64,000 nucleotides of DNA from an uncultured delta proteobacterium (GTDB lineage Bacteria > Chloroflexota > Dehalococcoidia > Dehalococcoidales > BS750m-G39), in assembly GCA_963739245.1 (NCBI GenBank), contig CAVTZP010000005.1, positions 153,314 through 217,313 of the forward strand. The letters run 5' to 3'. Below the pieces are notes generated by a model. The model made no database searches. It saw only the letters and a list, made by a program, of their open reading frames with translations, and was not told the DNA's origin. This document shows, one piece after another, positions 6,663-27,284 of this stretch. Both the position numbers and the translations under genes were made by a program. Each line of letters opens with the position of its first letter. Position 1 is the first letter of the stretch.

Positions 6663-7571
6663 CTACTTAGCCCGTGGGTGAGATCTCTCATAAGCGAGCC
6701 GAATATGGTCAGTGGTGAGATGGGTGTAAATCTGGGTGGTTGAGATGTTGGCATGACCCAAAAGTTCTTGAACCGAGCGCAGGTCAGCCCCTCCACTCAA
6801 CATATGGGTAGCAAAGCTGTGCCTTAGGGTATGGGGGGTAACCCGAGCCTCCAGGCCAGCTTCCTTGGCATAGCCCTTCAATATCTGCCAGAGTCCCTGC
6901 CTGGTCAGTCTCTCGCCACGGCGATTGAGGAACAAAGCCTTTTCCTCGCTGCTGCGTACCAGATGAGGGCGCGCTTCGGTTAAATAATCCTTTAATACCA
7001 GAACCGCACGAGGAGCAATAGGGATAATCCGCTCTTTATGCCCCTTGCCGAAGCAACGTACGTAGCCATCATCAATATTTATGTCAGTCAAGTTTAAAGA
7101 CACTAGCTCGCTTACTCTCATGCCACTGGCGTATAATAGATGCAGCATCGCACTATCTCTCTTGGCTTCCGGCGTTGACCGCTTGGCTGGTTGTTCTAGC
7201 AAAAGGCGGGCCTGAGCGATTGAGATTGGTCTGGGCAGTGACTTTCCCACCTTAGGTGACGGCACATCCCGCGTCGGGTTATCCCGCAAAATGCCCTCAG
7301 CCACCAAAAAGCCATAGAAGGACTTGATCGCAGCTATCTTGCGGGCGACGGTGGTGGCAGCATATCTTCTCTCCTTAAGCTCAAGGAGGTAGCGCAGCAT
7401 GGAGTCGCGGTCAAAAGCTGCCCAAGGGGGGATAGTGCCCCGCCTTGCCGCCTCCTTCTCAACAAAGCTAGCCAGTTGATGCAGGTCGTTCTGATAGGCA
7501 AGCTTGGTGTTCTCGGAAAAGCCCTTTTCCACAACCAGATAGTTTAAAAATTTGTCAATAACTTCTTTCAC
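6663..7571 (-). CDS. Tyrosine recombinase, XerC/XerD type
   Basis: N-terminal SAM-like domain (FLNYLVVEKGFSENTKLAYQNDL). Catalytic ASGMRVSEL, HTLRHSFATH and LGHANISTTQIYTH. GTG start. Confidence 0.9.
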   Translation of the reverse strand: MKEVIDKFLNYLVVEKGFSENTKLAYQNDLHQLASFVEKEAARRGTIPPWAAFDRDSMLRYLLELKERRYAATTVARKIAAIKSFYGFLVAEGILRDNPTRDVPSPKVGKSLPRPISIAQARLLLEQPAKRSTPEAKRDSAMLHLLYASGMRVSELVSLNLTDINIDDGYVRCFGKGHKERIIPIAPRAVLVLKDYLTEARPHLVRSSEEKALFLNRRGERLTRQGLWQILKGYAKEAGLEARVTPHTLRHSFATHMLSGGADLRSVQELLGHANISTTQIYTHLTTDHIRLAYERSHPRAK

Positions 7572-17821: not shown

Positions 17822-19102
17822 ATGGGACTCATCACGAAATGCCCTCTAACCGGTGTTTCCTGCAGCAAGCCTGTAGCAATAGAGGAGAAAACCTTTTTCC
17901 TCGCTGAGGCGGAAGAGCCAGATTACGATAGGCAACGCCGCAAAAAAGCGATACAGGAAGCTATCGCCGATGAATACAAGATACGAAGCGCTCTAGATGA
18001 AAATGGGGTAAATGCTTTCACCTGCCAAATCTGCGAGATGATTCAAACCTGTGCCCGCGGCATAGCTGATATAACACAAAACAATGCTAATGTTCTACTG
18101 GAATTAGGCATGATGCTAGCCCTGGGTAAGCCAACAATAATACTATTGAAAAAGGGACATGAGCCGCAGCTAAGATTACCTTCTGAAGTCGTGGCCACAG
18201 AAATCATGCTCTTCGAAGAGTACTTGGACATAATAGACCAGTTGAGGGAAGTGGTGAAGAAACAACCACCCCCAGTATCACCCCCAAGCCTTATTCCAGA
18301 TTTAGAGAAGACGACACCCCCGTTTACTGATGAGCTGAGGAAGATGGCAGATGACATAGCCAGGGAGTTCAAGGAAAGCGTTGAGGAGGCCAAGCTAGAC
18401 ACGGTAGCACTTAGGGACAAAAAGATTGAAGTTCCCTCTGAGCTCAGCCAAAGAATAGACAATCTGGAAGAGAAGCTAAATGAGATGGTAAAGCTGGGTT
18501 TTACCATAGATGCTAAGACTGCCTTTCTACGGGGTAACTACTATTATAACCAGGGGAAATATAATGAAGCCCTTGCTGACTACAATCGGTCTCTGGAGCT
18601 AAGACCTGATGACCCAGATACCCTCTGCAATCAGGGCACGACCTATGGTGAACTAGGGAGGTATGACAAAGCGCTCGCCGACTACAATCGGGCTTTGGAG
18701 CTAAGACCTGACAATCCAGATACCCTGTGCAATCGGGGCACGATCTATTATAAGCTGGGGATGTATAACGAAGCGCTCGCCGACTACAAACGGGCTTTAG
18801 AGCTGAGACCCCAAGACCCCACCACCCTCTACAATCGGGGCACTACCTATGCCAAGCTAGGGAGGTATGAGGAAGCCCTCGCCGACTACAATCGGTCTCT
18901 GGAGCTAAGGCCTGACCACCAAAGTACATTGTACAATATAGCCTGTCTTCTCTCACTCTGGGGGAAAACCGATGATGCGCTTACTTATCTGGAGAAAGCC
19001 GTCGGCAGAGATGAGAGATATCGTCAGATGGCGAAGATGGATAAAGACTTTGATGGTATTCGGGATGATCTCCGCCTCAAGAAGCTAACGGAATCTGTCT
19101 AA
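17822..19102 (+). CDS. Fusion protein: N-terminal nucleoside 2-deoxyribosyltransferase-like (NDT/TIR-like fold) domain, charged linker, C-terminal TPR array
   Basis: FFLAE...ADITQNNANVLLELGMMLALGKPTIILL matches the D..NpNV.yELG.A.alGKP signature of NDT-like domains. There are five or more 34-aa TPRs (ALADYNRSLELRPD...). Confidence 0.6.
   Translation: MGLITKCPLTGVSCSKPVAIEEKTFFLAEAEEPDYDRQRRKKAIQEAIADEYKIRSALDENGVNAFTCQICEMIQTCARGIADITQNNANVLLELGMMLALGKPTIILLKKGHEPQLRLPSEVVATEIMLFEEYLDIIDQLREVVKKQPPPVSPPSLIPDLEKTTPPFTDELRKMADDIAREFKESVEEAKLDTVALRDKKIEVPSELSQRIDNLEEKLNEMVKLGFTIDAKTAFLRGNYYYNQGKYNEALADYNRSLELRPDDPDTLCNQGTTYGELGRYDKALADYNRALELRPDNPDTLCNRGTIYYKLGMYNEALADYKRALELRPQDPTTLYNRGTTYAKLGRYEEALADYNRSLELRPDHQSTLYNIACLLSLWGKTDDALTYLEKAVGRDERYRQMAKMDKDFDGIRDDLRLKKLTESV
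18569..18976 (+). repeat. Four tandem 102-bp units (TPR-coding) with high nucleotide identity
   Basis: Units start at 18569, 18671, 18773 and 18875, each GC(C/G)CT(T/C)GC(T/C)GACTACAA(T/A)CGG...GAGCT(A/G)AG(A/G)CC. Confidence 0.85.
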
Positions 19103-19119
19103 TTTTTTTGGGGGAAGTG

Positions 19120-19560
19120 ATGAAGGCAAGCGAAGGGAAAATAGGGCGGGTGTTTGTGGTGAGGCTTGAGGACGGCGATGTGGTGCCCACCTGCATTGAG
19201 CGCTTCGCCGCAGAGAAGGGAATATCAGTCGGGCATGTTATTCTGGTGGGGGGAATCGGGAGTGGTGAGGTTGTAGTTGGCCCCCGTGATTCCGCGAAAA
19301 TGCCCCCCGAACCAATGCTCCTCCCCGTTGACGGCGTTCATGAAGTTGTCGGCGTGGGCATAATCGCCCCGGATAAAGATGGCAAGCCCGGCCTCCATAT
19401 CCACGCCTCATTGGGGCGGTCGGGGCAGACTATGACCGGCTGCCTCCGCCCCGGCGTTAAGACCTGGCTGGTGGGGGAAGCCATCATCTACGAGATTTTA
19501 GGGGCTAAAGTCTCCCGCCTCCCCGATAAAGCGAGCGGGTTTAGTTTGATGGAGATGTGA
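19120..19560 (+). CDS. PPC (DUF296) domain protein
   Basis: GRVFVVRLEDGDVV...ILVGGIGSGEVVV...LHIHASLG fits the PPC/PD1-like pattern. The ATG at 19120 is preferred. Confidence 0.65.
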   Translation: MKASEGKIGRVFVVRLEDGDVVPTCIERFAAEKGISVGHVILVGGIGSGEVVVGPRDSAKMPPEPMLLPVDGVHEVVGVGIIAPDKDGKPGLHIHASLGRSGQTMTGCLRPGVKTWLVGEAIIYEILGAKVSRLPDKASGFSLMEM

Positions 19561-19617
19561 GGGGGAAGGAATCAGCCACACAAAAGCTTATAGAACCGAC
19601 AATCCAGGAGACGATAC

Positions 19618-20544
19618 ATGTCCCTTCTAAGAGAAATTCAGAGTGACGCTGTAGATAAGAATGTGGACATCTCCGTGCTCTTACGTAAGTGTAAAATTCT
19701 CGCCGCACGACTTGGAAATGAAGAATTTAAACTATGGGTCGAACGTGAGCTAAACGGCTATACGTCCAAAGAAGATGTGCCAGGCTATCGGATACTAAAG
19801 GCAGAGTCCTATGGGTATTTTGCCGGTATAGCAGGTAGTGCTCTAAAGAACGCACCGATACCTCTTTCATATATATCAGGTATATCAAAGGAATGGAAGG
19901 AGTTTATAACTACTCTTTATCTTATGAATCCCATAAGTTATTTTACTTCCTTCACGAAAAATCGGAGTGGTAATGATGTTCTTAAAATCGATTGGCCTGC
20001 CGACTTAATTGCATATGTTGGAGATAAGATCTATGAGGGCATGAATTGTATGAGTGCTTGGAGAATTATTTCATGCAGCTCGATATTTTCGCTTCTTGAT
20101 ACTGTTAGGAATCGAATTCTTAGTTTTGCTCTGGAAATTGAGGCAGAGGCACCAGATGCAGGAGAGGCTGAACCCAACATCAAGCCCCTAGCTGATGAGC
20201 GAGTGTCCCAAGTATTTAATACCTACATTATGGGAAATGTTGCTAACCTAGCTACTGGTAGCCAAAACGTTGCACAAAGCACCCAAATTACAGTGTTTCA
20301 GAATGACCTTGACAGTTTAAAACAATATTTGGCGTCCCTTGGGATTCATGAACCAGATTTGAAAAAACTTGAACAGGCTATTCACGAGGATGCACAGTCT
20401 GGAGTGAAAGGGGATCTAGGTAGCAAGGTTAAGGCCTGGATGGGGAAAATGATAAATAAGGCTGGAACTAGCACATGGAACGTAGCAGTTTCTGTAGCCG
20501 CTATACTTCTTGCGGAAGCCCTCAAGAAGTATTATGGTCTCTAG
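19618..20544 (+). CDS. AbiTii-like (abortive infection) domain protein
   Basis: The N-terminus LLREIQSDAVDKNVDISVLLRKCKILAARLGNEEFKLWVERELNGY...PGYR resembles the AbiTii domain consensus. The GNVANLATGSQNVAQST stretch is also typical. The gene is AT-richer than its neighbours by eye. Confidence 0.5.
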   Translation: MSLLREIQSDAVDKNVDISVLLRKCKILAARLGNEEFKLWVERELNGYTSKEDVPGYRILKAESYGYFAGIAGSALKNAPIPLSYISGISKEWKEFITTLYLMNPISYFTSFTKNRSGNDVLKIDWPADLIAYVGDKIYEGMNCMSAWRIISCSSIFSLLDTVRNRILSFALEIEAEAPDAGEAEPNIKPLADERVSQVFNTYIMGNVANLATGSQNVAQSTQITVFQNDLDSLKQYLASLGIHEPDLKKLEQAIHEDAQSGVKGDLGSKVKAWMGKMINKAGTSTWNVAVSVAAILLAEALKKYYGL

Positions 20545-20575
20545 TGAGCGACTTAGCCACCCTTAAGGTGAGTCT

Positions 20576-20604
20576 AAGAGAGCCTCGCGCTCTCTTTTTT
20601 ATTT
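20576..20604 (+). terminator. Intrinsic terminator after the AbiTii-like gene
   Basis: AAGAGAGC ctcgc GCTCTCTT followed by TTTTTTATTT. Confidence 0.6.
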
Positions 20605-20721
20605 CCCTCCCCCTCACGGGAGAAATTTCTAAATCCTAATATCTAAACTCTAAACAGGCACGAATTGCGTTGTTTAGTATTTCGGATTTCGTGCTTCGAG
20701 TTTCTGATGAGGGGGTGAGGT
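20605..20721. repeat. Hairpin element copy F: degenerate inverted ends around a CTAAATY-heptad module
   Basis: CCCTCCCCCTCAC at 20605-20617 and GGGGGTGAGGT at 20711-20721. The internal TCTAAATCCTAATATCTAAACTCTAAACA at 20628-20656 is 27/29 identical to 46612-46640. Confidence 0.6.
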
Positions 20722-20764
20722 AGATAAAAAACCCCCTATAAGCTATACTATTAGCAGGATTGCT

Positions 20765-21388
20765 ATGCCCCAGTTTGAAATTATTATAGCCATCATCGCT
20801 ACGCTTTTTGCCGTGGTCGCGGCGGGGGCGGGAGTGTATTTTTTACTCCGCGGGCTGGGCTTTTTCCAGTATCTGGGTGGGAAGAAGAGCAGCTTGAGCG
20901 CAGTGAGCAAAGAAGCGCTGGTGAATAATCTTTTAGCTTTGAACGACTCGGCTAAGCCATATCATATTGCCAGGGGTGAAGATACTGACCTCGTTGCCGA
21001 GTGGAAGTTTGTTGACGCCTCCTGGTATGGCATACTCAGCAAGAGCGGGCTGAAGGGGGCATACCGGATGAACCTTCTACTTGACGAAGCAAGGCGCTCC
21101 GTCCGGTGCTATGAAGAGCTTGGCTCGGTAACCTGGTCAGCCGGCGCCAGCGGGTTAGTTCCCAGCGTTCACTACCAGAAAAGCTTCTTCGGCGGCAGGG
21201 TATTGTACAAAAAGGAGTACGGGAAGGGTTACGGGATAAAGGAGCCGGGAAGCCTTAAATTCGAAAAGGTATATGACTATAAGTTTGATATTAATGACAT
21301 CAGGCAACCAGTGATAGCGGCGGTTGAGGGGAGTGGTTGGGAGTGGGTGCCGGTAACAGCCCGGAGACACGCCGCATACAAGGTATAG
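20765..21388 (+). CDS. Hypothetical protein with an N-terminal TM anchor
   Basis: ORF with an N-terminal hydrophobic segment (IIIAIIATLFAVVAAGAGVYFLL). No recognised domain. Confidence 0.55.
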   Translation: MPQFEIIIAIIATLFAVVAAGAGVYFLLRGLGFFQYLGGKKSSLSAVSKEALVNNLLALNDSAKPYHIARGEDTDLVAEWKFVDASWYGILSKSGLKGAYRMNLLLDEARRSVRCYEELGSVTWSAGASGLVPSVHYQKSFFGGRVLYKKEYGKGYGIKEPGSLKFEKVYDYKFDINDIRQPVIAAVEGSGWEWVPVTARRHAAYKV

Positions 21389-21422
21389 ACTGCCCTATGT
21401 CAAATGTTGAGTTAGGTGGTGG

Positions 21423-21635
21423 TTAACTGCCTTCGTATTTGAAGGAGACCTTTATCTTGGCGCGGTAGCTGATTATCTTCCCCTTATCAATCTGCATATC
21501 CAGCTCTTCAATTTCGGCAATGCGAAGGTCGCGCAGTGACTTCGCCGCCGTCTCCACCGCTATCTTTGCCGCATCCTCCCAGGACTTGGGGCTGGTCCCC
21601 ACTAGTGTGATTATCTTGTAAACGCTGTCTGACAT
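21423..21635 (-). CDS. Dodecin family flavin-binding protein
   Basis: 70 aa, VYKIITLVGTSPKSWEDAAKIAVETAAKSLRDLR...YRAKIKVSF. Confidence 0.8.
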   Translation of the reverse strand: MSDSVYKIITLVGTSPKSWEDAAKIAVETAAKSLRDLRIAEIEELDMQIDKGKIISYRAKIKVSFKYEGS

Positions 21636-21753
21636 GGTTCTCTCCTTTTACTCTTTTAATCAGGTAGATGCTATTTTACAGGGCAAGCTCCCCATAGTCA
21701 ATAGCCCTAAATTGTAACTGCTGTACCGAGAGGCTATACTATTTGTAGAACCT

Positions 21754-23742
21754 ATGCTACAGTTTGAAATAGTCTCCGATTTCAGGATGACCGGCGACCA
21801 GCCCCAGGCGGTGGAGGGGCTGGTGGCGGGCTTAAATAAGGGCTTTAAGCAGCAGACACTGCTCGGCGTTACCGGCAGCGGCAAGACGTTTATCATGGCC
21901 AATGTCATCGCCAGGGTAAACCGGCCGACGCTGGTTATCTGCCATAACAAGACCTTAGCCGCCCAGCTCTACACTGAGTTCAAGGAGTTCTTCCCCAGTA
22001 GCGCCGTGGAGTACTTTGTCAGCTATTACGATTACTACCAGCCGGAAGCCTATGTTCCCCAGACCGATACCTATATTGAGAAGGAAACTGATATAAACGA
22101 GGAGATTGATAAGCTGCGCCACTCCGCCACCCGCTCCCTTTTTGAGCAGCGGGACGTGGTTATTGTGGCTTCGGTGTCCTGCATCTACGGTTTGGGCGAG
22201 CCCGAGGAATACCGCAGCTTTGTTGCTAGCCTTAAGCGGGGCGACAGCTACCGCCGGGAAAAGCTCCTCCGCCAGCTGGTTGATATGCAGTATGAACGCA
22301 ACGACATTGACTTTACCCGGGGCAAGTTCCGTATTCGCGGCGATACTTTGGAGATTCAGCCTGCCTACGAGGAGTTAGCCCTGAGGATTGAGTTTTTGGG
22401 CGATGAGATTGAGCGCATTATCCAGATAGACCCGCTAACCGGCGAGCTACTTAACGAGATGGAAGCGGTGGATTTATACCCGGCAAAGCACTTCGTTACC
22501 TCCCATGAAAAGCTGATGGCGGCTATTGAAAGCATAAAGCAGGAGCTGGAAGAAAGGCTGCAAGAGCTAAAACAGCAGGGCAAGCTACTGGAGGCAGCCA
22601 GGCTTGAAGCCAGAACCAACTATGATATGGAGATGCTCAAGGAAGCGGGGTATTGCACCGGCGTGGAGAACTACTCCCGCCACCTGTCGGGGCGCGCCCC
22701 GGGCAGCCCGCCATGGACACTGCTTGATTATTTCCCCGATGACTTCTTGCTGTTCCTTGACGAGTCGCACATGACCCTGCCCCAGATTCGGGGCATGTAT
22801 CACGGCGACATCTCCCGCAAGCAGACGCTGGTGGACTATGGCTTTCGCCTGCCCTCGGCGCTGGACAATCGCCCATTGAACTTCAACGAGTTTCAGCAGC
22901 GCATTAATCAGGTTATCTATACCTCAGCCACGCCGGCGGAGTATGAGTACGAGCACAGCCAACAGGTGGTGGAGCAATTGGTCCGGCCTACCGGGTTGCT
23001 TGAGCCCACGGTTGAGGTCAAGCCGACCAAGGGGCAGATTGATGACCTCCTCTACCAGATTAAGACCCGGGTAGATAAAGGGGAGCGCTGCCTGGTGACC
23101 ACCCTGACCAAGAGAATGGCTGAGGAACTGGCTGATTACTTGCTGGAGATGGGGGTAAAGACCCATTACCTCCATTCCGAGATTGAGACCCTGGAGAGGG
23201 TGGAGATACTGCGAGACCTTCGTCTTGGGGTTTACGATGTTGTTGTCGGCATAAACCTGCTCCGGGAGGGGCTTGACCTGCCTGAGGTAAGCCTGGTGGC
23301 GATTCTTGACGCCGATAAGGAAGGCTTTTTGAGGTCGGAGGGGGCGTTAATCCAGACCATGGGGCGTGCCGCCCGCCATATCGATGGGCATGTCATCATG
23401 TATGCTGATACCATTACCGGTTCCATGGCTAGAGCTATCGAGGAGACACAACGCCGCCGTGAAATCCAGGAAGCCTATAACCTTGAGCACGGCATTACCC
23501 CGCAGGGGATAAGAAAGGCAATCAAGGACATTACCGAAAGGGTAAAGGTTGTCGCTGAGACCCGGGTTGCCTATGTTGCTGCTCGTCCTACTACCAGAGA
23601 GGATGTCGTCCGTCTGATTAAGGAGCTGAAAGGGCAGATGAAGACTGCCGCCCGAAATCTGGAGTTTGAGAAGGCGGCACTGCTCCGCGACCGAATTATG
23701 GAGCTGAGAAAAGAGTTTGAATACGTGGATATAGAGAGATGA
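21754..23742 (+). CDS. uvrB: Excinuclease ABC subunit B
   Basis: [15 protein letters not shown], helicase motifs and a C-terminal UVR domain ([16 protein letters not shown]). Confidence 0.95.
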
Positions 23743-23882
23743 GCGAAGAAAAGATAGAAATAAGGCAGGAGCGGCGGGAGAAGAAGCTCAAGAAGAAGCG
23801 GGAGCGAGTGCCTCAGCACGGCAAGGGTCTGGCTAGAATATATAGGGATGCTATCCTCAAGCGGCTAAAACGCTCAAAGTAA
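23739..23882 (+). CDS. Small basic protein (47 aa), below the ORF-track cut-off; translationally coupled to uvrB
   Basis: Its ATG overlaps the uvrB stop (ATGA). Translation: [48 protein letters not shown] diverged second copy of its 3' end at 24717-24768 keeps DAILKRLK with only synonymous changes. Confidence 0.55.
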
Positions 23883-23908
23883 GGAGCAATCTTTAGCGGG
23901 ATAAAAAT

Positions 23909-24721
23909 ATGTTAGATTTTTTGTCAAGCCTTCCTCCAATAATACAAGCCCTTCTTGCTGCCTGTTTTACCTGGGCAATGACTGCCGTTGGGGCAGCGGT
24001 AGTATTTGTTGTTACCGATGTAAATAGAAAGCTGTTTGATTTGATGCTGGGTATTGCCAGTGGCATCATGTTGGCGGTTATTTATTGGTCGCTGCTGGCA
24101 CCGGCGATTGGGATGGCCAGAGGCGGTAGCCTTCCTGCCTGGTTTCCGGCGGCGGTGGGTTTTCTTGTGGGCGGTATTTTCCTGTGGGGTATTGATAAGG
24201 TACTGCCCCACATCCACCCCGGCTTTCCTGCCGAGGAGGTTGAGGGTATTAAGACCACCTGGCGGCGCAATACCTTACTTGTTCTGGCTATGGTTTTGCA
24301 TAATATTCCCGAGGGGCTTGCCATCGGGATTGCCTTTGGTGCTGCCGCCGCTGGCTTGCCTTCGGCAACCTTAGCTACAGCCATCGCCCTGGCTATTGGT
24401 ATTGGGATTCAAAATTTCCCAGAGGGGCTTGCCGTCTCTGTGCCTCTTCGTAGTAGCGGGATGTCCCGCTTGAGGAGTTTCTGCTATGGACAGCTATCGG
24501 CGATAGTTGAACCTATTGCCAGTGTTATTGGTGCTGTCGGCGTAATTTTTTTCCGGTCTGCCCTGCCTTATGCTCTAGCCTTCGCTGCCGGGGCGATGGT
24601 CTTCGTCGTAATTGAGGAAATAATCCCGGAGTCTCAACGTAGCGGAAATGTGCATCTAGCCACTATGGGGGCAATGGTCGGTTTTGTCATAATGATGATA
24701 CTTGAGGTCGCCTTCAGCTAG
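23909..24721 (+). CDS. ZIP family (ZupT/GufA-like) divalent metal transporter
   Basis: Eight-TM profile with HNIPEGLAIG and QNFPEGLAVS motifs. Confidence 0.85.
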   Translation: MLDFLSSLPPIIQALLAACFTWAMTAVGAAVVFVVTDVNRKLFDLMLGIASGIMLAVIYWSLLAPAIGMARGGSLPAWFPAAVGFLVGGIFLWGIDKVLPHIHPGFPAEEVEGIKTTWRRNTLLVLAMVLHNIPEGLAIGIAFGAAAAGLPSATLATAIALAIGIGIQNFPEGLAVSVPLRSSGMSRLRSFCYGQLSAIVEPIASVIGAVGVIFFRSALPYALAFAAGAMVFVVIEEIIPESQRSGNVHLATMGAMVGFVIMMILEVAFS

Positions 24722-24768
24722 AATATATTGATGCCATCCTCAAGCGATTAAAGCCCAGCTCTAAGTCA
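24717..24768 (+). pseudogene. Orphan diverged copy of the 3' end of the 47-aa ORF
   Basis: GCTAGAATATAT is shared exactly with 23832-23843. It is followed by GAT GCC ATC CTC AAG CGA TTA AAG, against GAT GCT ATC CTC AAG CGG CTA AAA in the intact gene. Confidence 0.6.
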
Positions 24769-24856
24769 ATAATTTACAATCGCAATTTATAGACAAATCA
24801 AAACTTATGTTATATGCTATTATTAAAGATACGAAGTATCCCGTTTGGGGGCTAAT

Positions 24857-25774
24857 ATGAGACGAAAGGAAATAATACAAGCCGGTCAAAAAATAATTGA
24901 TGCGATTACAAGAAGTGAGATTCTTAAAGGTTTTGAGGAGACGGCGCATAGGGTTTCACCAGAACGAGAAATTTTTAATGCTGATTTAATGTATAAATTG
25001 CATCAGTATTCCCTTCTTGCTTCGGATTACGGGCCTATCGAGAAACAGATTATCGATATCTTGGGGTTAACTGATTTGACTAATCCCCAAAAATGGTCAG
25101 ACGTTGTTTATACCAGAGAGGGTAGCTACGGGGCTATTTTCGTATGGAATAGGTATTTATATTTTGCCGTAAACTATCTTCCGCTATTTCTGGAATTAAT
25201 TAAGCCTGATTATTTAGCTATTACACAAGAAAAGCCGGAGGAACTTCCCGATGAATATAAGGGGAAAGCGCTATTAACTACAATTCTCGTGGAAGATAGT
25301 AAGCATCCAGTCACACTAGAGCGCGTCATGGACCTTCTATCGGGTATATCTTCGCTGTACGAGGCTTCCTCTACAATAATTAAACACCCGGCTGTTCCTC
25401 TGATTATGATTGGCTGTGATTCGGGTAGTGAAAAGGCGTTTGATTTCCTCGGCGCAGAAAAAATCATGCAAATGGTCAAAGAAATTCTTCTTTCACTTTG
25501 GGATAGCATTATGTTCTTCCATGAACGTCAGGTTGCGCAAAAGTTTGAATTGGTTGCCGAATCATTACCTATTATTGAGCAAATTGATGTTTTAGAAGAT
25601 GAAGATAAAATTGGGCATGAAGAGGCGGCGTTGCTTTGTAAAAAGATAGTTGATTCTGTGCAAAAGTTTATTACCTGCGGGGCTTTTATACCAGAAATGC
25701 AGGAGAGAAGTACCTTTGACCCTCATGAGCTTATGATGCCGGAACCGAAACTTCTGGAAGAGGGTCAAAACTGA
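24857..25774 (+). CDS. Hypothetical protein (305 aa from ATG 24857), AT-rich island gene
   Basis: Long ORF with no domain I recognise. Its 3' end overlaps the convergent AlbA_2 gene by 44 nt. Confidence 0.55.
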   Translation: MRRKEIIQAGQKIIDAITRSEILKGFEETAHRVSPEREIFNADLMYKLHQYSLLASDYGPIEKQIIDILGLTDLTNPQKWSDVVYTREGSYGAIFVWNRYLYFAVNYLPLFLELIKPDYLAITQEKPEELPDEYKGKALLTTILVEDSKHPVTLERVMDLLSGISSLYEASSTIIKHPAVPLIMIGCDSGSEKAFDFLGAEKIMQMVKEILLSLWDSIMFFHERQVAQKFELVAESLPIIEQIDVLEDEDKIGHEEAALLCKKIVDSVQKFITCGAFIPEMQERSTFDPHELMMPEPKLLEEGQN

Positions 25775-27284
25775 AAAGAATGAAGAGCAATATATTTCCT
25801 CCGTGTGACTTGCTCTGATTCTGTACCTGACCATCTGTCAATGTTGAGTATATTAACCCTTTACAAAGCATCGATTCTAATACTTTTCTATATTCATCTG
25901 TATCAACGATTTTTAATATATCAATTATTTGTTTAGCCGTCATTAATTTTCCAAGTCTTCCTAATAATAGTATTTTTTGTTCGTCTTTAGACGCATTAAA
26001 AATAGAATAACTACCAAGCCAAGCTTGGTCTCTTTCAGAAAATATTGATTTGCTATACAAGGTAATTTTAAACCCGTTACCTGTTTCCATAAGCTCGGGT
26101 TGAACTAGGTCATATTCCGCCATAGCGCGAAATATACGGGGTATCCCTTCTCCTAACTCTCTCATATAACCAATTTCTCTAAGTACTCTTGCGATATGCG
26201 GATTTCTCGACTCGTGTACGCGCCTTAAAGCTATTAAGTCTGCTAGCTTGATTGTGGACAAAAGTCTACCAGGGCTAATTATTTCAATCCTATCATCAAA
26301 TATGAATATTTCAATCCCTTTACCTTGGACTGAATAATCCCTATGTGCTATCGCGTTTGTTAGTGATTCTCTACACGCAGTCTCTGGATATAGTAGTGTT
26401 TCAGCAAAAATACTGTCTTTACCAAGCTTGGTAACAGCCAAGTTCGGTCTCAAGATGTCCCAACCACTATTAAATAGTTCCATTATGTTTCCTTCTGTAA
26501 ACTCATCCTTCTCAACCTCATACTGTTCCCCTATTGAAGTGCCAACAACACGTATTATCCTTATTTGTGACCTTGGATGCCACCTTGAAATATTTTTGGC
26601 AAAGAGTAGTAATGCTGCTCTTTTCAATTTCATACCTTGTGGTGAGTACTCCGCCAAATGTAGATATTGCAGAAATAGTTCAGGTGACGATCCTGGCATT
26701 ATCTTTTCAGCTAAAGATGCTACTAAATCAATATTTAGGTCACTCACCTCTGCATTAGTCACTAGCTCACGGTCATACTCCATAGCTTTTATTTCTTGTC
26801 TCTGCTTTTGGATTTGCTCTGGAGATACCGGTCTGTTCTCCCTATCTCTTCTCTGTAAACACTTGCCATCACTCGTTAAATGAACATAATCCACGCTTTT
26901 TTGAACAGAGAAATATAATATTTTACTGTCAGGTATACTACTTAAATTTAGTGACCTCACAATAGGATTTATCAGAGGTGTATCCTTATGAACATGTGTA
27001 ACAGGCGCATTTAAAATCGTATCCAGATGTTCTCTTATGTGGGGAACACCAGTAGTATGGCCGTCATCTTCTACTCCTACAAGTAGTTCACCGCCATCTG
27101 CATTAGCAAAAGCGACTAATGTTTCACCAACGTCTCTAGCTATAACTTTTGCCTCTCTCCTTCTAGGACCCTGAGGTTGCTGCTCATAGGCACTCTTAAA
27201 TTCTCTGAAATGGCTTTCACCCAGATTAATTGATTGCTGGATTCTTTTTTGGAGGGTCAATACTATTGATGTGTCACTACCCAT
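25731..27284 (-). CDS. Schlafen/AlbA_2 domain plus HATPase_c_4 (RecG-C-like) ATP-binding protein
   Basis: ESHFREFKS...VGETLVAFANADGGELLVGVEDDG is the AlbA_2 part. ESLTNAIAHRDYS...IEIFIFDDRIEIISPGRL is the HATPase_c_4 part. Confidence 0.75.
   Translation of the reverse strand: MGSDTSIVLTLQKRIQQSINLGESHFREFKSAYEQQPQGPRRREAKVIARDVGETLVAFANADGGELLVGVEDDGHTTGVPHIREHLDTILNAPVTHVHKDTPLINPIVRSLNLSSIPDSKILYFSVQKSVDYVHLTSDGKCLQRRDRENRPVSPEQIQKQRQEIKAMEYDRELVTNAEVSDLNIDLVASLAEKIMPGSSPELFLQYLHLAEYSPQGMKLKRAALLLFAKNISRWHPRSQIRIIRVVGTSIGEQYEVEKDEFTEGNIMELFNSGWDILRPNLAVTKLGKDSIFAETLLYPETACRESLTNAIAHRDYSVQGKGIEIFIFDDRIEIISPGRLLSTIKLADLIALRRVHESRNPHIARVLREIGYMRELGEGIPRIFRAMAEYDLVQPELMETGNGFKITLYSKSIFSERDQAWLGSYSIFNASKDEQKILLLGRLGKLMTAKQIIDILKIVDTDEYRKVLESMLCKGLIYSTLTDGQVQNQSKSHGGNILLFILFSFDPLPEVSVPAS

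Follow-up and report, generated by a model that had tools for sequence, protein, structure and literature searches.

A variable, apparently defence-rich slot behind ruvA

The window analysed here is a 64,000-nucleotide (nt) stretch of DNA from an uncultured Dehalococcoidia bacterium (contig CAVTZP010000005.1, positions 153,314 to 217,313), in which three genes follow ruvA on the same strand. Gene 1 encodes a domain resembling the nucleoside 2-deoxyribosyltransferases (NDT) fused to a TPR array, gene 2 a PPC/PCC (DUF296) protein, called PCC below, and gene 3 an AbiTii protein. An earlier sequence-only reading had taken them for a conflict-type trio standing where ruvB is expected. We favour, with moderate confidence, the interpretation that they are three independent occupants of a defence-rich accessory slot that is read through from the ruvCA operon. 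Judged from the gene content of related loci, the region between ruvA and uvrB appears to be flexible and rich in genes of conflict or defence type, and the trio does not appear to be a system.

All comparison data come from metagenomes, in which a scan with RuvA retrieved 80 loci (RuvA 61–93% identical; individual loci carry L or P numbers). Their content was surveyed by tblastn and by clustering of open reading frames (ORFs). Fifty-one RuvA-anchored loci were informative, and 33 were closed, that is, they run from ruvA to uvrB. The ruvA–uvrB interval measures 821–4378 nt in the closed loci, and more than 100 ORF clusters occupy it across about 80 loci. The PF10107 nuclease is present in 26 of the 51 informative loci, PCC in 16, gene 1 in 8 and AbiTii in 2. 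A group of the closest relatives (L088–L094, RuvA 88–93% identical) carries other cargo and has no gene 1, while L163 has the order ruvA–AbiTii–uvrB, gene 1 and PCC both being absent. The closest relative of all, L001 (ENA ERZ25039515 contig_24573, RuvA 93% identical), has a content past PCC that is wholly unlike that of the window, consisting of MoxR-type AAA_3, DUF58 and transglutaminase genes.

The cargo found in the same slot of relatives is of conflict type, in support of that part of the sequence-only reading. It includes two families of type II restriction-modification methylases (PADLOC E = 1e-73 and 4e-146), each beside an ORF of unknown type; a ThsB-like TIR protein (PDC-S66, 4e-58; ThsB1, 2e-38) and a second, TIR_2 protein; an NsnB/GajA-like AAA_15 ATPase; and NYN, Trypsin_2, HTH+Peptidase_M78 and HNH proteins, a NucS_C-like protein and another NDT-like protein. 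The three genes as a unit did not hold up: the trio is absent outside the window among about 100 related loci, and in L163 AbiTii is unaccompanied by either of the others. Of the 15 informative gene-1 loci, 10 have gene 1 and PCC side by side, an association that is significant in the RuvA-anchored set (Fisher p = 6e-4, uncorrected for phylogeny). We do not accept it as functional linkage, as it is confined to a single subclade in which some loci are near-duplicates; there are 9–12 loci with PCC and no gene 1, and at least six with gene 1 and no PCC.

Hotspots of this general kind have been described as core defence hotspots in Pseudomonas aeruginosa (PMC10250203) and as defence-island hotspots in E. 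coli (PMC10121019). The present slot shares with them its conserved core flanks, a strain-variable content of restriction-modification, TIR, Abi and ATPase type, and exchange between close relatives. It differs in being tiny (0.8–4.4 kb) and in lying inside a housekeeping repair operon, ahead of the terminator; its cargo is mostly same-strand and promoterless, and there is no integrase or mobile-element backbone. A further difference is the host, an uncultured Dehalococcoidia clade. The recognised defence families in the slot are type II methylases, ThsB-like TIR, GajA/NsnB-like ATPase and AbiTii, alongside many uncharacterised occupants.

Organization of the operon

The core operon (15966–17804, + strand) consists of yebC (15966–16730), ruvC (16727–17269) and ruvA (17226–17804), identified by Pfam matches to TACO1/YebC, to RuvC and to RuvA_N/HHH_5/RuvA_C, respectively, and its gene order is identical in all related loci. 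It is followed on the same strand by gene 1 (17822–19102, 426 aa), gene 2 (19120–19560, 146 aa) and gene 3 (19618–20544, 308 aa). The longest gene 2 ORF begins at a TTG at 19108, the ATG at 19120 being the most plausible start; it is preceded by the Shine-Dalgarno motif GGGGGAAG, and a similar motif stands ahead of each ORF from ruvA to gene 3. The ORF map confirms the gaps of 17, 17 and 57 nt reported earlier.

A promoter-like site on the + strand lies ahead of yebC (15918–15947). No further + strand promoter-like site was found between 15947 and 20721 in a scan with an E. coli-type consensus. The terminator claimed at 20576–20604 is real in the sense that it is the strongest + strand site between 15400 and 21800: an 8-pair hairpin (20576–20596) is followed by a T-run to 20604, with an RNA fold of −14.5 kcal/mol (z = −2.7). 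The only earlier + strand terminator-like sites, at 17326–17342 and 18726–18742, have minimal 5-bp stems and lie within coding sequence; the total of eight terminator-like sites is not above chance (shuffles, 6.1 ± 2.5). An Rfam scan of 15000–24000 at E ≤ 1 returned nothing.

The placement of the trio within the ruvCA transcription unit appears to be correct, in that it follows ruvA without any separating signal, and in relatives the conserved terminator likewise stands to the right of the cargo. Of the sequence evidence, it is this retention of the native terminator downstream of the inserts that speaks most for co-transcription with ruvA. The slot would thus hold promoterless, same-strand genes inserted between ruvA and a conserved terminator and probably transcribed by read-through from yebC–ruvC–ruvA.

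The window does contain no ruvB, as had been stated: tblastn with RuvB of this lineage gave nothing, and Pfam found none among ORFs of matching size. The expectation of a ruvB at this place is an E. coli one and does not apply, since ruvB follows ruvA in 0 of about 90 ruvA loci of the lineage. In L003 it lies behind rpoC, some 7 kb upstream. The trio is no replacement for ruvB.

Junctions and insertion points

Because the 18 nt before the PCC ATG reproduce the ruvA 3′ end, gene 1 is bracketed by a short duplication. The left copy, TATTTTGGAGGTAAGTAA, is the end of ruvA itself (17787–17804, + strand), and the right copy, TTTTTTTGGGGGAAGTGA, is found after the gene 1 stop, ahead of the PCC ATG (19103–19120, + strand), where it also provides the PCC Shine-Dalgarno motif. 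In L096 and L100, which have no gene 1, the ruvA end TATTTTGGGGGGAAGTGA overlaps the PCC start as TGATG (TTTTGGGGGGAAGTGATGAAGGC; L096:1195–1260, L100:650–720), and the ruvA/PCC junction of L096 (TATTTTGGGGGGAAGTGATGAAGGC) matches window positions 19103–19125 almost letter for letter. The ruvA 3′-end copy is found after gene 1 in the window, in L099 and in L103; in L095 the second copy is partial and PCC is lost. These junctions suggest an older translational coupling of ruvA and PCC, with gene 1 having come to lie at that very junction.

A second set of borders lies further downstream. The PCC-less loci L089, L108 and L163 keep the last 25–40 nt of PCC directly after ruvA, and a motif scan detected such 3′-end scars in seven PCC-less loci. 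The variable cargo extends from precisely the PCC stop to a conserved element, GAGTCTAAGAGAGCCTCGCGCTCTCTTTTTTATTTCCCTCCCCCTC, which in the window is the intrinsic-terminator element at 20570–20615 (+ strand) and forms the right boundary of the second cargo slot. This element is present in at least nine loci (L089, L092, L099, L101, L102, L104, L112, L135 and L163), standing to the right of cargo as different as AbiTii, a methylase with cluster c7, NYN, HTH-M78 and cluster c8. From the cargo borders and the junction copies it follows that there are two insertion points, one at the ruvA/PCC junction and the other between the PCC stop and the terminator.

The composition of the three genes also differs, AbiTii being the most AT-rich, as had been noticed by eye. 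Their GC contents are 0.482 (gene 1), 0.587 (PCC) and 0.419 (AbiTii), and AbiTii has a GC content at third codon positions (GC3) of 0.366, against 0.558 ± 0.076 for 36 other ORFs of the window. Junction scars, GC content and synonymous divergence (dS) together back the proposal of stepwise accretion. In the sequence of events that we propose, PCC would be an old, vertically inherited occupant that was originally translationally coupled to ruvA; gene 1 would be a cassette placed precisely at the ruvA/PCC junction, with duplicated ruvA 3′ ends on its flanks; and AbiTii would be a recent, AT-rich and solitary occupant of the second slot, where relatives have restriction-modification, NYN or HTH-M78 genes.

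Gene 1: an NDT-like domain on a stalk and TPR array

The gene 1 protein consists of an NDT-like α/β domain (aa 21–147; 17882–18262), five-stranded in the AlphaFold2 (AF2) model; a helical stalk, modelled as two long helices (aa 157–224; 18290–18493); and a TPR region with its end-cap (aa 231–423; 18512–19090), supported by the AF2 model, Pfam and NCBIfam. The last region comprises five TPR repeats and a TPR end-cap (NF047558, E = 3.5e-30). The full-length AF2 model has a pLDDT of 86.6, and the N-terminal domain modelled on its own has a pLDDT of 81.1 and a pTM of 0.80.

The NDT-like fold of the N-terminal domain, first suggested from the sequence, is upheld by structural comparison. In a Foldseek search of the PDB the top 36 structures are MilB, BcmB, DNPH1 and NDT proteins, the best matches having E values of 2e-5 to 1e-3, TM scores of 0.5–0.62 and a probability of 1.00; the first TIR structure is at rank 37. 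The PF05014 profile gives 21.7 bits with the full protein, 23.5 bits with the N-terminal domain and 25–27 bits with orthologues, below the gathering cut-off of 28.8. PF10137 likewise stays below its cut-off of 24.7 (14.8 bits, orthologues up to 24.3), and there is no match to the PF13676, PF01582 or PF13271 (DUF4062) profiles. In a single-sequence search with aa 20–150, Glu94 of gene 1 (in LLELG) aligned with the YELG glutamate of Rcl, the nucleophile position; a profile search of PDB sequences with the gene 1 family alignment was dominated by TPR matches and uninformative for the N-terminal domain. A glutamate nucleophile is cited as established for the NDT family in PMC3710099, the residue being E98 of LlNDT. 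Glu94 is at least 90% conserved in 29–34 homologues and is also kept in distant relatives, as is the surrounding core N-x-N-V-x-x-E-L-G-x-x-x-A-L-G-K-P, which all close homologues have.

In its closest structural matches (DNPH1/Rcl, MilB/BcmB and class I/II NDTs; PDB 4jem, 4jen, 4kxm, 7o62) the domain finds its counterpart for the core ‘hydrophobic-strand D/E ... N-x-x-V-x-x-E-L-G-x-x-x-A-x-G-K-P’. It differs from these proteins in that a phosphate-binding first loop of GxxRGG type is not evident, and in having an extra N-terminal strand, four conserved cysteines and the fusion to stalk and TPR array. The cysteines (Cys7, Cys14, Cys68 and Cys71) are conserved together and are jointly absent from the distant homologue L022, a pattern which suggests a structural Zn site, possibly a Zn clip. 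Distant NDT-like members (L018, L019 and L020, in their N-terminal 200 aa, and L023 and L035) keep the CFKTG..C / C..C motif; they have either an unassigned N-terminal domain (HLILKWNP...YVWWGK), possibly PUA/EVE-like, or a large ATPase-like region.

Two anti-phage proteins offer the closest functional comparisons. Swarozyc is a single-protein system in which a DUF4062 TIR-like/NDT-superfamily NADase is joined through a helical stalk to a C-terminal sensor, and it is activated by the phage portal (bioRxiv 10.64898/2026.05.01.722283). Gene 1 resembles it in having, in one chain, an N-terminal TIR/NDT-superfamily domain that carries a catalytic glutamate, a stalk and a C-terminal ligand-binding module, and in the proposed sensor-driven re-alignment of the enzymatic domains. 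It is unlike Swarozyc in that its fold is nearer to NDT/DNPH1 than to TIR and its sensor is a TPR array; membership of the DUF4062/Swarozyc family was rejected for want of a PF13271 match. The effector of retron Ec86 (Retron-Eco1) is also NDT-like and depletes adenine derivatives, and in this effector, as in LlNDT, the active sites are formed across dimers (bioRxiv 10.1101/2023.08.16.553469). Gene 1 shares with it the NDT-like domain and a catalytic glutamate in the equivalent helix. By analogy, the NDT-like domain of gene 1 may be an anti-phage effector that depletes nucleotides in a dimer-dependent manner; differently from Ec86, gene 1 comes with neither a reverse transcriptase nor msDNA nor a wHTH lobe, and the fused TPR array, rather than msDNA, would regulate it.

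Conflict systems of the STAND-like type combine an effector, a central P-loop NTPase and a TPR repeat sensor. Gene 1 has the effector fused to a TPR sensor of variable repeat number in common with them, and it lacks the NTPase/P-loop module, as the sequence-only reading had correctly noted: no NTPase family matches, and the segment at aa 157–224 is modelled as helices. The match to TPR-S (PF20308), at 24.1 bits, is below the cut-off of 27.6.

On the basis of the model, it is plausible that gene 1 is a single-chain sensor-effector. The TPR repeats and cap would act as the sensor and bind a protein ligand; the stalk would transmit the signal or mediate oligomerisation of the N-terminal domains; and the activated NDT/DNPH1-like N-glycosidase domain would cleave the N-glycosidic bond of a nucleotide, which may be NAD+, a deoxynucleoside monophosphate (dNMP) or an adenine nucleotide. 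Nucleotide hydrolysis would then arrest the infected cell.

The history of gene 1 differs from that of its flanks. Its ratio of non-synonymous to synonymous divergence (dN/dS, or omega) is 0.1–0.3 in all three regions, reaching 0.6 in the stalk, and so reflects purifying selection. Between the window and L099/L101, dS is 0.94–1.5 for gene 1 and 0.34–0.62 for yebC, ruvC, ruvA, PCC and uvrB. This excess indicates divergent allele lineages or allele replacement; since it exceeds both flanks, there would be two old lineages of gene 1 alleles in otherwise close backgrounds. Family members are 358 to 503 aa long, depending on how many TPR repeats they have. In five loci, paralogues in the same slot keep the TPR repeats and cap, the NDT domain being replaced by a transmembrane helix and coiled coil (L118:4581–5978, L123:8582–10072, L128:9235–10536, L130:2065–3465 and L134:1362–2150), which has the appearance of an effector swap.

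Gene 1 is rare. An exact look-up in the contig collection gave no record of it. Homologues of its N-terminal region (n = 51) all come from metagenomes of Chloroflexota/Dehalococcoidia type, and a close orthologue is present in 3 of 185,579 GTDB species representatives; an exhaustive HMMER search of 1.84 billion proteins gave 311 cluster representatives of the NDT-like domain family at E ≤ 1e-3. More distantly related copies of the domain occur in fusions with REC, GAF, PAS, ATPase and TPR modules (REC, GAF and PAS fusions in L014, L022, P0212 and P0214). One 609-aa NDT-like/TPR relative, 45% identical in the N-terminal domain (L174:2647–5372, also in L175), adjoins a short tyrosine integrase. 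This insert comprises the NDT-TPR gene, the integrase and four small ORFs, and splits the genes for pyruvate:ferredoxin oxidoreductase (PFOR); judged from this arrangement, the gene 1 family appears able to travel on an integrative element.

Gene 2: a likely partner of ruvA

Gene 2 matches the PCC profile PF03479 almost completely (E = 1.2e-20; 74.4 bits against a cut-off of 25; profile positions 1–115 of 117). Its PDB relatives, 2h6l and 2dt4, are both labelled ‘hypothetical protein’. Its divergence is congruent with that of RuvA (Spearman 0.80), it is more conserved than RuvA, and its dN/dS is 0.10–0.19 with a dS like that of the flanks. These values and the junctions described above do not agree with the earlier placement of PCC among conflict cargo, and are those of a vertically inherited partner of ruvA. 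PCC is likely to be the ancestral, translationally coupled gene downstream of ruvA, and its function may be DNA-related.

The commonest gene directly after ruvA encodes the PF10107 protein (161 aa; L004:7687–8175 and 25 other loci), an endonuclease related to archaeal Holliday junction resolvase, often with an ATGA overlap with PCC. It has no match in PADLOC or PHROG. Its role could be that of a second resolvase, or else of a nuclease in a conflict system.

Gene 3: a solitary AbiTii protein

The AbiTii likeness noted earlier for gene 3 proved to be strong (PF18864, E = 1.3e-43, 149.9 bits against a cut-off of 27.6; PADLOC AbiTii, 2.1e-43). A complete AbiTii domain (aa 2–185) is followed by a conserved helical module of about 110 aa (aa 196–308), which matches phrog_16090 (E = 1e-11), a stand-alone phage family. 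The AbiTii domain is an N-terminal, recognition-type domain, usually fused to HEPN, and has been proposed as the target-recognising module of Abi proteins (Anantharaman et al. 2013, PMC3710099). Lactococcal AbiT requires two genes, AbiTi and AbiTii (PMC13064643). Gene 3 has the full AbiTii domain in common with AbiT and the AbiTii-HEPN fusions. It differs from them in its C-terminal 110 aa, and in lacking both AbiTi and HEPN: there is no HEPN match in Pfam and no R-x(4-6)-H motif in the sequence or the family alignment, and the gene adjoins PCC and the terminator, with no AbiTi partner. No conserved partner stands beside the AbiTii homologues in L163, L169, L171 and L172 either, and homologues elsewhere are solitary, lying between housekeeping genes or beside HicAB and transposases. 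Low GC3 and rarity indicate that the AbiTii gene was acquired recently.

A 15-nt inverted repeat (19557–19571, GTGAGGGGGAAGGAA; 20603–20617, TTCCCTCCCCCTCAC) brackets AbiTii and the terminator. It was considered as the ends of an AbiTii cassette and rejected, as both arms are found in AbiTii-free relatives, one at the PCC stop and the other in the conserved terminator element. C-rich tails of CCCTCCCCCTC type follow many terminators in these genomes, and the repeat may be a lineage-wide motif associated with terminators.

Alternative interpretations

Several observations weigh against the interpretation as a defence-rich slot. A few related samples account for many of the loci, and there are near-duplicates among them (L101/L102/L135 and L103/L104), which makes the counts non-independent. 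Neither of the two commonest occupants, Endonuc_Holl and PCC, is known as a defence gene. PADLOC gives gene 1 no significant model, the best match outside the TPR repeats being a TIR effector (E = 5.5e-4), and fusions of the NDT-like domain to GAF, PAS and REC modules are as compatible with ordinary signalling as with immunity and favour neither. The promoter and terminator scans rest on an E. coli-type consensus. Finally, eight of the ten contexts retrieved via gene 1 lie downstream of yebC–ruvC–ruvA (L001–L004, L008–L010 and the P0182 contig; the exceptions are L005 and L174), a linkage tighter than that of a freely mobile gene. The P0182 relative, 683 aa long and 40% identical, is in the ruvA operon with a right flank that is not uvrB.

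This linkage is central to the strongest alternative, which we consider a possible but clearly less probable one: gene 1, perhaps with PCC, would provide lineage-specific repair or nucleotide-pool factors working with RuvCA and UvrB, with no immune role. Gene 1 could be a DNPH1-like hydrolase that removes aberrant dNMPs, or a DNA N-glycosidase recruited through its TPR repeats. The persistence in the operon, even in the P0182 relative, the tight same-strand spacing and the lack of an own promoter fit such a role, but gene 1 occurs in just 8 of the 51 RuvA-anchored loci, the nearest relatives of the window having methylases or other cargo instead, and one member of the family is on an integrase-bearing island. 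The best structural matches, DNPH1/Rcl and the nucleotide N-glycosidases MilB/BcmB, also speak for this role; the variable TPR copy number and the transmembrane-helix swaps speak against it. Gene 1 is under purifying selection, yet its dS is 2–3 times that of its flanks between close genomes. PCC, coupled to ruvA, more conserved than RuvA and congruent in its divergence, and the Holliday-junction-resolvase-like PF10107 nuclease as the commonest neighbour, speak for a repair context, although PCC has repeatedly been deleted, leaving scars.

A bolder extension of the preferred slot interpretation seems doubtful to us. Here the tail of the yebC–ruvC–ruvA operon in Dehalococcoidia would be dedicated to the capture of promoterless cassettes, integrase-free but functionally integron-like, in which insertion by short homology duplicates the upstream 3′ end, the cargo is driven by a recombination-repair promoter, and the NDT-TPR and TM-TPR (transmembrane) proteins are new single-chain immune sensors tied to Holliday-junction processing. 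If this were true, the linkage to ruvA even at 40% identity could mean, for example, that they guard RuvA/RuvC or sense phage recombination intermediates or proteins.

It is quite improbable that the genes are cargo without a selected function here, that is, hitch-hiking or decaying insertions in a recombination-prone intergenic region. Rapid turnover of content and deletion scars would agree with this, as would the split of gene 1 in L001. Many other L001 genes are frameshifted as well, including uvrC and a GTPase gene, so the split looks like an assembly error and was rejected as a sign of decay. All three ORFs of the window are intact, omega is 0.1–0.3 for gene 1 and PCC, and the AbiTii family alignment shows conservation over the full length.

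The notion of one three-component defence system, with an NDT/TPR sensor-effector, a PPC adaptor and an AbiTii component, is suggested by adjacency on one strand, short gaps, a single downstream terminator and the uncorrected gene 1–PCC association, but is highly improbable and, judged from the census, largely refuted by a distribution in which the trio never recurs, AbiTii is alone also in L169, L171 and L172, gene 1 and PCC are often found apart, PCC is linked to ruvA rather than to gene 1, and GC3, dS and phylogenetic behaviour are not alike in the three genes. An integron-like array was rejected, there being no nearby IntI integrase and no recurrent element per cassette, with conservation limited to the one terminator element at the end (attC models were not run).

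Neighbouring features

The right flank of the region consists of orf207 (20735–21388, + strand, 207 aa), a dodecin gene (21423–21635, − strand; Pfam Dodecin) and uvrB (21754–23742, + strand; 81–92% identical in related loci). The product of orf207 has an N-terminal transmembrane helix and no match in the family scans; the gene is also found in L090, L092, L094 and L104. Its location beyond the operon terminator makes it a unit of its own. It is linked to uvrB by a direct repeat (about 47 nt): positions 20735–20781 (the orf207 leader and MPQFEI) copy 21726–21770 (the uvrB leader and MLQFEI), with a promoter-like site in each copy (20721–20749 and 21712–21740, respectively). It seems that orf207 captured a duplicate of the uvrB promoter and start.

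Just past the region studied, a low-GC stretch (24600–25800; 0.375 at 24600–24999) contains a 309-aa ORF (24845–25774) with no Pfam match, and may be another acquired segment. The sole recombinase seen near the locus, 10 kb upstream, is an XerC/D-like tyrosine recombinase with Phage_integrase and SAM_1 domains (6663–7571, − strand); it is also the only tyrosine recombinase of the window and is probably a housekeeping one.

Significance

Most mapping of defence hotspots has been done in cultured Proteobacteria. Neither hotspots nor NDT-like effectors nor AbiTii are new in kind; what is new here is the location of a putative micro-hotspot within a repair operon, upstream of the terminator, with a junction record of gene gain and loss. 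Also new are a rare NDT-like/TPR family with a putative Zn-Cys site, apparently divergent alleles and transmembrane-swap paralogues, and the predicted translational coupling of ruvA and PPC. These results correct the ‘trio’ reading, and they extend current ideas without overturning any.

For the uncultured Chloroflexota concerned, they describe a slot of unusual design, in which promoterless cargo lies within a DNA-repair operon, before the operon's own terminator. The slot yields testable candidates in the rare NDT-TPR family, in a solitary AbiTii protein with a new C-terminal module, and in the PPC/DUF296 protein that appears to be coupled to ruvA, a coupling that would rank among the few clues that gene context gives to what this domain does in prokaryotes.

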